A stretch of 64,000 nt of DNA, from assembly GCF_048403405.1 (NCBI RefSeq), contig NZ_CP183129.1; one strand, given 5' to 3'. Origin of the DNA: Escherichia coli. GTDB taxonomy: Bacteria; Pseudomonadota; Gammaproteobacteria; Enterobacterales; Enterobacteriaceae. The translations under genes and the position numbers were made by a program. Under the pieces are notes generated by a model, which searched no databases, was not told where the DNA came from, and was given only the letters and a program-made list of their open reading frames with translations. Shown piece by piece: positions 52,506 through 56,733 of this stretch. Position 1 is the stretch's first letter, and every line of letters begins with the position of its first letter.

Positions 52506-52706
52506 ATGGGACTTAAGTGGACCGATAGCCGCGAAATTGGCGAAGCACTGTACGATGCGTATCCCGATCTTGATCCGAAAACGGTTCGATTCACCGATAT
52601 GCATCAGTGGATTTGCGATCTGGAAGATTTCGACGACGACCCGCAGGCATCTAACGAAAAAATCCTCGAAGCGATTTTGTTAGTCTGGCTTGACGAAGCC
52701 GAGTGA
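52506..52706 (+). CDS. iscX: IscX (66 aa, acidic)
   Basis: Small acidic ORF immediately after fdx. Confidence 0.85.
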
Positions 52707-52950
52707 TTTCCCCGTCATGCTTCACGCCGCAGATGCGTTGGCTGCGCTCGTTCACCCCAGTCACATAGTTATCTATGCTCCTGGGGCTTCACTCACTTGC
52801 CGCGTGATTCGGCCTTTTGGCCTCACCCCTCCGGGGCCAGCGCAAGCGCTGTTCAAAACGCAATGCGTTTTGTCCTGCAACGCGAATCATTTAGCGGAAA
52901 AATCCTGGGGCTGCCAACTGGCGGCCCTTTTACAAAGAAGGATAACTAAA

Positions 52951-54352: not shown

Positions 54353-55129
54353 ATGTCCGAAACAAAAAACGAACTTGAAGATCTGCTGGAAAAAGCAGCA
54401 ACCGAACCGGCGCACCGCCCGGCCTTTTTCCGTACGCTACTGGAATCCACCGTCTGGGTGCCGGGTACGGCGGCGCAGGGCGAGGCTGTGGTTGAAGATA
54501 GCGCGCTTGATTTACAGCACTGGGAAAAAGAAGACGGCACCAGCGTCATTCCTTTTTTTACCTCGTTAGAAGCACTTCAACAGGCGGTTGAAGACGAACA
54601 GGCATTTGTCGTAATGCCCGTTCGCACATTGTTTGAGATGACCCTTGGCGAAACGCTCTTCCTTAATGCCAAACTGCCGACCGGTAAAGAATTTATGCCG
54701 CGTGAAATCAGTTTGTTGATTGGTGAAGAAGGAAATCCGCTGAGCAGCCAGGAAGTACTGGAGGGCGGTGAATCGCTGATATTATCGGAAGTCGCAGAGC
54801 CACCAGCACAAATGATTGATTCACTCACCACCTTATTTAAAACTATTAAGCCGGTGAAGCGTGCTTTTATTTGTTCAATTAAAGAGAACGAAGAGACACA
54901 GCCTAATTTACTTATTGGCATTGAAGCCGATGGTGATATCGAAGAAATTATTCAGGCGGCGGGAAGTGTAGCGACCGATACATTACCTGGCGATGAACCC
55001 ATCGATATTTGTCAGGTGAAAAAAGGGGAAAAAGGAATTAGCCACTTTATTACCGAACATATTGCGCCATTCTATGAACGTCGCTGGGGTGGCTTTTTGC
55101 GTGACTTTAAACAGAACCGGATAATCTAA
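54353..55129 (+). CDS. sseB: SseB, enhancer of serine sensitivity (258 aa)
   Basis: ORF 54344..55129; start at MSETKNELEDLLEKA. Confidence 0.85.
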   Translation: MSETKNELEDLLEKAATEPAHRPAFFRTLLESTVWVPGTAAQGEAVVEDSALDLQHWEKEDGTSVIPFFTSLEALQQAVEDEQAFVVMPVRTLFEMTLGETLFLNAKLPTGKEFMPREISLLIGEEGNPLSSQEVLEGGESLILSEVAEPPAQMIDSLTTLFKTIKPVKRAFICSIKENEETQPNLLIGIEADGDIEEIIQAAGSVATDTLPGDEPIDICQVKKGEKGISHFITEHIAPFYERRWGGFLRDFKQNRII

Positions 55130-55134
55130 AATAT

Positions 55135-55152
55135 GCCGCCCCAAAGGGCGGC
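55135..55152. terminator. hairpin shared by sseB (+) and the convergent ryfA-like RNA (-)
   Basis: gccgccc-caaa-gggcggc; on the minus strand the stem is followed by AUAUUUUAGAUU. Confidence 0.55.
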
Positions 55153-55160
55153 ATTCGGGC

Positions 55161-55298
55161 TTACTTGCTGCTCTGAAGTTTGTTAACCACCAGTAAATTG
55201 TTACCGGAGAGACTCCGGTTATTATTTACCTCGGTTAACAGCGCACCAGAAACAATAAGTACGATACAAAAGCACCGTATCTTCATTGTGCGGTCCAT
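55161..55298 (-). CDS. candidate small hydrophobic (TimP/type I toxin-like) protein, 45 aa (41 aa from second ATG at 55286)
   Basis: Manual translation: MDRTMKIRCFCIVLIVSGALLTEVNNNRSLSGNNLLVVNKLQSSK; in-frame TGA five codons upstream of the first ATG; no obvious SD; too short for the ORF track. Confidence 0.4.
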   Translation of the reverse strand: MDRTMKIRCFCIVLIVSGALLTEVNNNRSLSGNNLLVVNKLQSSK

Positions 55299-55505
55299 GC
55301 GAAGACCGCATCACGACAGCACCACTGGCGATATTGCCGCGATAGCAAGCGCTGAGACGCGCTTGCCCTAACGGTCGCGGAACATCCTTTCCTTGAGCCA
55401 GCGCCCGCTTGCGAGACGGCGGAAAGGGCCGGTGTCGATAATACGCTAAATAAACAATGATTACTCTCTTTCGCTTGACAAAAAGAGAGTTACTGGCGAG
55501 TATTG

Positions 55506-55606
55506 TGTCCGCTGAGACGCGCTTGCATTACTACGGTAATACAATCTGCTGGAAAGGCCGCGAACCAAACCAGCAACAAATAACCGCCTGATTTTGGCGG
55601 TTTTTT
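55506..55606 (+). ncRNA. candidate antitoxin-type sRNA, module 1 (approximate)
   Basis: TTGACA (55475-55480)-18 bp-AGTATT, then about 100 nt ending in aaccgcc-tgatttt-ggcggtt + TTTTTT (55582-55606); nt 55510-55526 are perfectly complementary to the minus-strand RNA at 55350-55366. Confidence 0.45.
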
Positions 55607-55784
55607 GTTGCTTAAAGAAAGTGAATTTACATGTTTAAGTAATATCTTTTACCGGTTAGTATTTTTAATATTGAGCGGGATTTGTTTATATTTGTCTGAA
55701 TTCGGACTGATAAGCCAAATGAATTCAAAATCTATCCTTTTTTATCTACTTGACATCGTTGATGCATAAAGCGAGTATTGAGTA

Positions 55785-55871
55785 GACGAGATACACTTGC
55801 AGTAATACAACCTGCTGGAAAGGCCGCGAACCAGACCAGCAATAAAAAACCGCCAAATTCGGCGGTTTTTT
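55785..55871 (+). ncRNA. candidate sRNA, module 2, paralog of module 1 (approximate)
   Basis: TTGACA (55750-55755)-18 bp-AGTATT, then a shared core ctgctggaaaggccgcgaacca-accagcaa and terminator ccgcc-aaattc-ggcgg + TTTTTT (55850-55871); lacks the 17-nt complementary box. Confidence 0.4.
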
Positions 55872-55887
55872 ATTGCCTGTAAAAAGC

Positions 55888-56733
55888 TTATTTCAATGGC
55901 TCAACCGGTAAATCTGCCCGTGCGCCCCATTCACTCCATGCGCCGTCGTACAGTTTCACGTTTGGCACATCAAGTGTCGCGAGTGCCAACAAAACCACGG
56001 CTGCCGTTACACCAGAGCCGCAGCTGACGATAATCGGTTTGTCATAGCTGACGCCGCGACCAAAAAATATCGCATCCAGTTCATCGGTCGTTTTTAGTTC
56101 GCCTTCGCGCACCAGTTCCGTCCACGGAACGTTCAATGCACCGGGAATATGTCCGCGACGTAAACCTGGGCGAGGTTCATCAACTTCTGCGTTAAAACGT
56201 GCAGCCGGGCGGGCATCAATAATTTGCGCCGTATTTTCATGGCTTGCCAATAACACATCGGTGACTTTCACCACGGCTTCAGGATTAAACGTGGCGTTAA
56301 ACTCTCCTTCCGGCAGCTCTACTGCACCTTCTTCTAACAGCAGATCATCGCGCTGCCAGCCTGCAAGTCCACCCCCCAGAATCGACACTTTCTCTACACC
56401 AAAGGTGCGCAGCATCCACCATGCTCGTGGGGCTGAGAAAAGATTACCTTCGTCATAGACAATCAGGTGCTTATCCTGGTTAACGCCTAATTCACGCATC
56501 GCCACGGCGAACGTTTCCGGGCGCGGCAGCATGTGCGGAAGCGGGGAAGTGTGATCAGAAAGCGCTTCGATATCAAAAAACACTGCGCCGGGAATATGTC
56601 CATTCAGATACTCCTGAGCAACGTTACGATCTTCCTGTCCAGGCGACGCCATGCGGGCATCAATAATCTGAATTTCCGGGTCATCAATATGTTCGGCGAG
56701 CCAGTCGGCTCCTACAAACCATGTCGTGGACAT
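55888..56733 (-). CDS. sseA: 3-mercaptopyruvate sulfurtransferase, tandem rhodanese domains (281 aa)
   Basis: ORF 55888..56892; start at MSTTWFVGADWL; active-site Cys loop CGSGVTA. Confidence 0.9.
   Translation of the reverse strand: MSTTWFVGADWLAEHIDDPEIQIIDARMASPGQEDRNVAQEYLNGHIPGAVFFDIEALSDHTSPLPHMLPRPETFAVAMRELGVNQDKHLIVYDEGNLFSAPRAWWMLRTFGVEKVSILGGGLAGWQRDDLLLEEGAVELPEGEFNATFNPEAVVKVTDVLLASHENTAQIIDARPAARFNAEVDEPRPGLRRGHIPGALNVPWTELVREGELKTTDELDAIFFGRGVSYDKPIIVSCGSGVTAAVVLLALATLDVPNVKLYDGAWSEWGARADLPVEPLK

Follow-up and report, generated by a model that had tools for sequence, protein, structure and literature searches.

The closest described system to the locus analysed here is timP-timR of Salmonella enterica serovar Typhimurium, in which the TimP protein has been detected and is toxic (PMC7667032). 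The Salmonella timP frame begins at +145, and with that ATG mutated both the protein and its toxicity are lost (PMC7667032). In the published model the leader contains four stem-loops, TimR pairs at SL2 and the Shine-Dalgarno sequence is trapped in SL4 (PMC7667032, PMC11228461); translation depends on a 7-bp pseudoknot between SL1 and SL3, which TimR disrupts (PMC11228461). In Escherichia coli K-12 MG1655 the corresponding annotations are ryfA (b4440), timP (b4812) and timR (b4811), and peptide-independent regulation of stress and virulence genes by RyfA has been reported for both UPEC and APEC.

The DNA analysed here (‘the window’) is a stretch of 64,000 nt from E. coli, in which the convergent genes sseB (+, ending at 55129) and sseA (-, stop at 55888) flank a spacer of 758 bp, measured from stop to stop. 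The original prediction, made from raw sequence, had picked out in this spacer a hydrophobic frame of 45 codons on the minus strand, and the ORF listing places such a frame at 55161..55298 (-), encoding 45 aa (MDRTMKIRCFCIVLIVSGALLTEVNNNRSLSGNNLLVVNKLQSSK). The composition attributed to it, a hydrophobic stretch of about 15 residues and a polar, basic tail, is equally apparent: IRCFCIVLIVSGALL, residues 3-17, has a mean Kyte-Doolittle value of 2.48, compared with -0.7, and a net charge of +2, in the tail of the 45-codon frame. Many frames in the same spacer run to 20-63 codons, so frame length alone is no evidence; by itself the 45-codon frame is within chance, and its significance comes from cross-species conservation. 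The spacer had also been said to lack any ORF of 60 aa or more, which is incorrect, since a 63-aa frame with a TTG start lies on the plus strand at 55180..55371, antisense to timP. This longer frame is not conserved and was rejected as a gene: no antisense frame is open in more than 8 of the 18 orthologues.

By its RNA- and protein-family matches, the minus-strand frame is timP, a gene for a small membrane toxin, already known and annotated, that lies within the RyfA RNA. The locus is very probably the E. coli timP-timR type I toxin-antitoxin locus, toxicity being assigned to TimP by analogy with Salmonella. Its transcript and coding sequence are as follows.

55128..55432, minus strand: timP mRNA (= RyfA RNA), approximately 303-305 nt, 5′ end likely near 55430-55432; Rfam RF00126
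55161..55286, minus strand: timP coding sequence, 41 aa plus stop, MKIRCFCIVLIVSGALLTEVNNNRSLSGNNLLVVNKLQSSK; RefSeq CDS, NF040796, open in 18/18 orthologues

The ryfA-like RNA that had been suspected in the spacer was recovered at full length, the Rfam ryfA family (RF00126) matching 55128..55432 (-) over model positions 1-296/296 with 309.3 bits (gathering score 80). The timP frame sits within this ryfA-family transcript, between sseA and sseB and adjoining the latter. The likeness to type I toxin peptides, and the link drawn to Salmonella TimP, proved equally sound: the peptide scored 83.9 bits against the NCBIfam model NF040796 (toxic_TimP; curated cutoff 45), with positions 1-40 of the 40-position profile aligned to residues 1-40 of the 41-aa form, that is, from residue 5 of the 45-aa frame. 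It has the layout of the TimP family: a hydrophobic signal/anchor segment at the N terminus, then a polar tail, with a total of approximately 38-42 aa. The frame is not ‘unannotated’, as had been supposed; RefSeq and PGAP annotate timP exactly there in E. coli, K-12 (b4812) included, and the RefSeq CDS WP_242880333.1, from the 100% identical strain TUM14771, maps to 55161..55286 (41 aa). The 801-bp region is present in 5425/5426 complete E. coli genomes, and all 64 named database relatives found by protein search are TimP or hypothetical protein. The frame is therefore a correct rediscovery, timP/ryfA and timR having already been published (2020, 2024) and annotated in RefSeq and the K-12 reference. 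Its value is that a reader of raw sequence picked out a genuine small toxin gene, to which the present analysis adds a corrected start codon (55286, giving 41 aa), the missing partner TimR and the control structures.

Elsewhere in the window, a cluster of small Rfam matches was seen at 52635-52880 (-), within the pepB reading frame and towards its 5′ end, comprising AaHKsRNA22 (45.3 bits, gathering score 39.8) and sub-threshold matches to V_AS5 and CssrA; these may be repeat elements.

The word-indexed protein search returned relatives only from Escherichia, Shigella and one Klebsiella fragment, and cross-genus evidence was therefore taken from a DNA motif scan. One genome per species was scanned for exact matches to the SL4 hairpin, a motif lying wholly upstream of the start codon. 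There were 35 matches, 15 of them chance matches in unrelated high-GC genomes and 20 enterobacterial, from seven genera (Escherichia, Citrobacter, Superficieibacter, Yersinia, Rahnella, Erwinia and Pantoea); the exact-match requirement missed Salmonella and Klebsiella. All 20 enterobacterial loci were full or end-truncated ryfA matches, and in all 18 complete copies CACAAUG was followed by an intact frame of 38-42 codons. No other of the six frames behaved in this way: the timP frame was open in 18/18 orthologues, and the others in 0-8. Median pairwise dN/dS among the 18 was 0.38 (dS about 1), with 0.22 in the hydrophobic half compared with 0.62 in the tail, and pairwise differences at codon positions 1/2/3 were 0.36/0.27/0.45, the third position being the most variable. 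The frame-breaking indels, or lack of codon-level constraint, in orthologous spacers that the original prediction had named as its own refutation were not found in these loci. The C-terminal half of TimP is weakly constrained (dN/dS 0.62), and RNA structure (hairpin 55252..55289), as opposed to constraint on the protein, could account for part of the slow substitution around the beginning of the frame.

Upstream of the frame, all four published control elements are present in this E. coli locus, as judged from Rfam structure and comparative sequence. The elements of the transcription unit, all on the minus strand, are listed in transcript order.

55438..55443, minus strand: -10-like TATTAT of the timP promoter, read from sequence, ending 6-7 nt before the Rfam 5′ end; -35 weak
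55387..55426, minus strand: SL1 of the timP leader, RNA positions 7-46, with the pseudoknot 5′ arm CGCUGGC at 55397..55403; Rfam structure
55346..55365, minus strand: SL2, predicted TimR-binding stem-loop, with the 17-nt TimR target GCAAGCGCGUCUCAGCG at 55350..55366; exact repeat shared with 55510..55526
55310..55343, minus strand: SL3, loop bearing the pseudoknot 3′ arm GCCAGUG at 55323..55329
55290..55309, minus strand: SL4, hairpin predicted to sequester the Shine-Dalgarno GGA at 55294..55296, with the upstream ATG in its loop and closing pair; Rfam structure
55128..55154, minus strand: intrinsic terminator of timP, 9-bp stem with 7 G-C pairs, then a U tract; terminator scan (55154..55133)

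The proposal of a unit bounded by TATTAT and a hairpin/U-tract terminator agrees with this arrangement, ryfA lying between TATTAT at 55443..55438 and the terminator at 55154..55133; the consensus promoter scan did not report the timP TATTAT. In a 16-sequence alignment the Rfam structure with pseudoknot was 95.7% paired, compared with 38-50% in slid controls, and SL1 (Rfam helices 1-2) was 96-100% paired in the 16 orthologues. The 7-bp pseudoknot, RNA positions 30-36 with 104-110 (55397..55403 with 55323..55329), was 100% paired in the 16 sequences, 3 of its 7 pairs showing compensatory changes on both sides, and the terminator (Rfam helix 14) had 4 covarying pairs. The SL4 hairpin alone folds at -13.5 kcal/mol. 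SL4 was itself the search motif, so its invariance in the ortholog set is uninformative.

The cognate antitoxin RNA, TimR, had been overlooked, and lies on the opposite strand just upstream of timP. Its ends were placed by analogy with K-12 timR (b4811).

55510..55606, plus strand: TimR sRNA, proximal (cognate) copy, 5′ end CGCUGAGACGCGCUUGC complementary to timP SL2; sequence, terminator scan
55475..55480 and 55498..55503, plus strand: TimR promoter, TTGACA and GAGTAT, 17-nt spacing
55582..55602, plus strand: TimR terminator stem; terminator scan

The first 17 nt of TimR (55510..55526) are the exact complement of 55350..55366, and in the control for this 17-nt complement two matches were obtained in 0/100 shuffles. 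Restricted to the seed, the TimR-timP duplex has a predicted energy of -37.9 kcal/mol, compared with -18.2 +/- 3.4 kcal/mol for shuffles. A comparison of full-length duplexes had told nothing, since with long interior loops allowed the energies of shuffled sRNAs came close to that of the real pair; the seed-restricted comparison took its place. A 5′ seed of 11-21 nt occurs at the same relative position in 14/18 loci, changing in step with SL2, and across genera the body of TimR is constant while seed and SL2 covary. This co-change is comparative evidence for the predicted TimR-timP pairing.

Within the body of TimR, GGAAAGGCCG (55546-55556 +) is nearly complementary to CGGCCCUUUCC at the 5′ end of timP (55421-55431 -), possibly a second contact site. 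The TimR gene looks like an abridged antisense version of the timP leader, a resemblance that hints at duplication as its origin. Rfam contains no TimR family, and the TimR-type genes of the window gave in it a sub-threshold match to AgrB, the antitoxin RNA of dinQ, and terminator-driven noise. The AgrB model scored 28.8 bits (gathering score 40) at 55793-55874 (+), and 40.7 bits, just over the gathering score, at a TimR-type gene of Pantoea latae (L036 1439-1519, +). This likeness may reflect a shared two-hairpin layout, and homology to AgrB is not claimed.

A second TimR-like gene occupies the sseA end of the spacer, with an Rfam match lying between it and TimR.

55785..55871, plus strand: distal TimR-like sRNA gene next to sseA, promoter TTGACA at 55750..55755 and GAGTAT at 55773..55778
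55564..55741, minus strand: match to the IS128 RNA family, between the two TimR-type genes; Rfam RF00125, 178.8 bits

The IS128 match corresponds to AT-rich filler (31% G+C), its 3′ hairpin being the reverse face of the TimR terminator. The distal gene has the promoter layout, body and terminator of TimR, the body being 84% identical over 70 nt, with a different 5′ seed. Its seed duplex with the resident timP, at -18.2 kcal/mol, equals the shuffle mean, and the gene is accordingly non-cognate; searching the 64-kb window for a target of this seed (≤3 mismatches in 19 nt) returned only the gene itself. The distal allele is present at full length in 348/5426 E. coli genomes, and at least four seed types were seen. 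An unlikely reading of the distal gene, whose promoter, body and terminator are intact, is that it is an orphan antitoxin and more than a decaying relic. It would then either act in trans as an sRNA on a new target or protect against a timP allele with a different key that recombination had brought in, and the spacer would be a cassette array. If this were true, the ‘lock and key’ sequences of SL2 and TimR would diversify and shuffle within E. coli in the sseA-sseB spacer, and the counterpart of the distal gene would be a timP in which SL2 reads GCAAGUGUAUCUCGUC.

The spacer is also arranged differently in other genomes. In K-12 (NC_000913.3, L039 1057-1156 and about 1390-1490) the annotated timR (b4811) is the distal copy, which fits the K-12 SL2 (-35.6 kcal/mol); the proximal copy there is unannotated, carries the seed type of the window and fits K-12 timP more poorly (-25.9 kcal/mol). 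Since the cognate copy is proximal in the window and distal in K-12, E. coli strains differ in which copy is cognate. A remnant of approximately 20 nt of the timP 5′ end lies between the two TimR copies of K-12. In E. coli S1-IND-02-A (L038 2366-3453) two TimR-timP modules, both complete, stand in tandem, the seed of each fitting the SL2 of the same module; an 87-nt sseB 3′ fragment separates them. There are approximately 177 extra timP copies across 5425 E. coli genomes. In Citrobacter amalonaticus (L016 8069-8340) and Yersinia aleksiciae (L031 5125-5409) the timP RNA has a truncated 5′ end, and what adjoins the 3′ half of SL2 is the body of TimR, joined to it directly and read on the timP strand. 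Neither promoter is left, nor SL1 nor the pseudoknot arm, yet the timP frame is intact. Such a fusion is as expected of a deletion that arose by recombination between a TimR seed and its SL2 copy. Shuffling of TimR seeds from strain to strain may bear on whether E. coli TimP is made and toxic.

Taken over from the Salmonella model, the RyfA transcript of approximately 303 nt would serve as an mRNA, translated from AUG 55286 into the 41-aa TimP, which would be carried to the inner membrane by an uncleaved Sec-type signal/anchor segment (MKIRCFCIVLIVSGALL) and, when overproduced, would make the membrane leaky. Translation would be restricted intrinsically, SL4 locking away GGA and the hairpin after it the start codon, and initiation would need the leader form in which the 7-bp pseudoknot joins SL1 (CGCUGGC) to the SL3 loop (GCCAGUG). 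The first 17 nt of the divergent TimR (55510..55606, +) would base-pair with the loop region of SL2 in the timP leader, disrupting the pseudoknot and blocking initiation, so that TimP would be made only when TimR falls. Toxicity, membrane location, start-codon use and the pseudoknot/TimR mechanism are all ascribed to E. coli from the Salmonella work (PMC7667032, PMC11228461).

Translation most likely begins at the second ATG, 55286 (RNA position 147 from the Rfam 5′ end), as argued by analogy with the Salmonella start and by the sequence, and not at 55298, from which the 45-codon frame had originally been drawn; the conserved and annotated start gives 41 aa. Use of the first ATG, yielding a 45-aa protein as also predicted for CFT073, where the frame was drawn as +135..+270 in the UPEC paper, is highly improbable. 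That codon is in frame and is present in Escherichia, Citrobacter, Yersinia and Pantoea, but in four Rahnella species and Erwinia it is replaced by AAG, while the ATG at 55286 is invariant. Moreover, it falls at 55296..55298, in the loop and closing pair of SL4, where it overlaps the GGA Shine-Dalgarno and has none of its own. It had been held that neither ATG has an obvious Shine-Dalgarno sequence, which is so for the first, but 55286 is preceded at 7 nt by a short GGA (55296..55294) within the 3′ arm of a stable hairpin. Both the NCBIfam model and PGAP begin at the second ATG, and in Salmonella the start at +145 is the one whose mutation abolished the protein.

Two further readings concern what the transcript and its product do. 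It is possible, though on balance doubtful, that RyfA acts in E. coli mainly as a regulatory non-coding RNA to which the frame is secondary, or, put strictly, as a dual-function RNA whose output that matters in E. coli is the RNA itself. The RNA belongs to the Rfam family of RyfA sRNAs (309 bits against 80), and in UPEC CFT073 three ryfA alleles with disrupted frames gave full complementation of a ryfA mutant in fimbriae, motility and stress phenotypes; RyfA therefore has a peptide-independent role and may be a dual-function RNA. Work on APEC treats RyfA and TimR as an sRNA pair, and the 2026 paper describes little effect of timR deletion and states that the toxicity of E. coli TimP ‘remains to be determined’; RyfA is also reported to be ProQ-bound in APEC. 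Against a secondary frame, however, stand its integrity in 18/18 orthologues from seven genera, which is true of no other frame, a dN/dS below 1 that is lowest in the hydrophobic segment, and the detection and toxicity of the Salmonella protein (PMC7667032), and the coding and RNA roles of RyfA are compatible. It is rather unlikely that TimP instead serves a physiological, non-toxic function as a small membrane protein, its level tuned by TimR and its toxicity an artefact of overexpression. Deletion of timR in Salmonella allows TimP to be made with normal growth and only mild Cpx induction, and overexpression there involves about 350-fold more TimP protein; but a divergent antisense RNA, a sequestered Shine-Dalgarno and killing on induction all fit type I toxin-antitoxin systems, and no alternative role for TimP has been shown. 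A timP mRNA that encodes a toxin held in check by TimR is the preferred reading.

The locus shares both RNA family (ryfA) and protein family (NF040796) with timP-timR of Salmonella enterica serovar Typhimurium (Andresen et al. 2020, PMC7667032; Eleftheraki and Holmqvist 2024, PMC11228461). In both, timP adjoins sseB, a divergent TimR has a 5′ end complementary to SL2, and the leader has SL1-SL4, of which SL4 traps the Shine-Dalgarno, as well as a 7-bp pseudoknot between SL1 and SL3. They differ in the length of TimP (41 aa in the window, 38 aa in Salmonella), the C-terminal half of which has diverged, and in the contiguous TimR complement (17 nt compared with 18 nt). In Salmonella one further gene, STM2534, separates sseA from timP; the window strain has a second, non-cognate TimR-like gene, and toxicity is predicted for the E. 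coli protein.

The orthologous locus of E. coli K-12 (ryfA b4440, timP b4812, timR b4811) encodes a 41-aa TimP differing at 2 residues from that of the window; the specificity sequences of SL2 and TimR differ between the two, and the distal copy of the window represents a third seed type. An RNA pair homologous to that of the window, RyfA1/RyfA2 with RyfB1, is reported from Shigella dysenteriae. In that species, in work by Fris et al. in 2017, overexpression of RyfB1 reportedly lowers RyfA1, and the RNAs are said to be sibling non-coding sRNAs with two full copies of RyfA. The two RyfA copies reported in Shigella contrast with the single timP of the window, and two-copy arrays occur in some E. 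coli (L038).

Beyond the family itself, tisB-istR1, shoB-ohsC, zor-orz and dinQ-agrB resemble timP-timR in type of peptide, gene layout and mode of control. Each likewise involves a small hydrophobic peptide of the inner membrane (a location predicted for E. coli TimP from Salmonella), an antitoxin sRNA gene that lies beside the toxin gene and not opposite it, the sRNA pairing with the 5′ UTR, and a ribosome-binding site that is structurally sequestered, as in timP. Unlike the toxins of these pairs, TimP has a Sec-type signal, and its mRNA, again unlike theirs, would need no nucleolytic processing, activation consisting in a conformational switch to the pseudoknot form.
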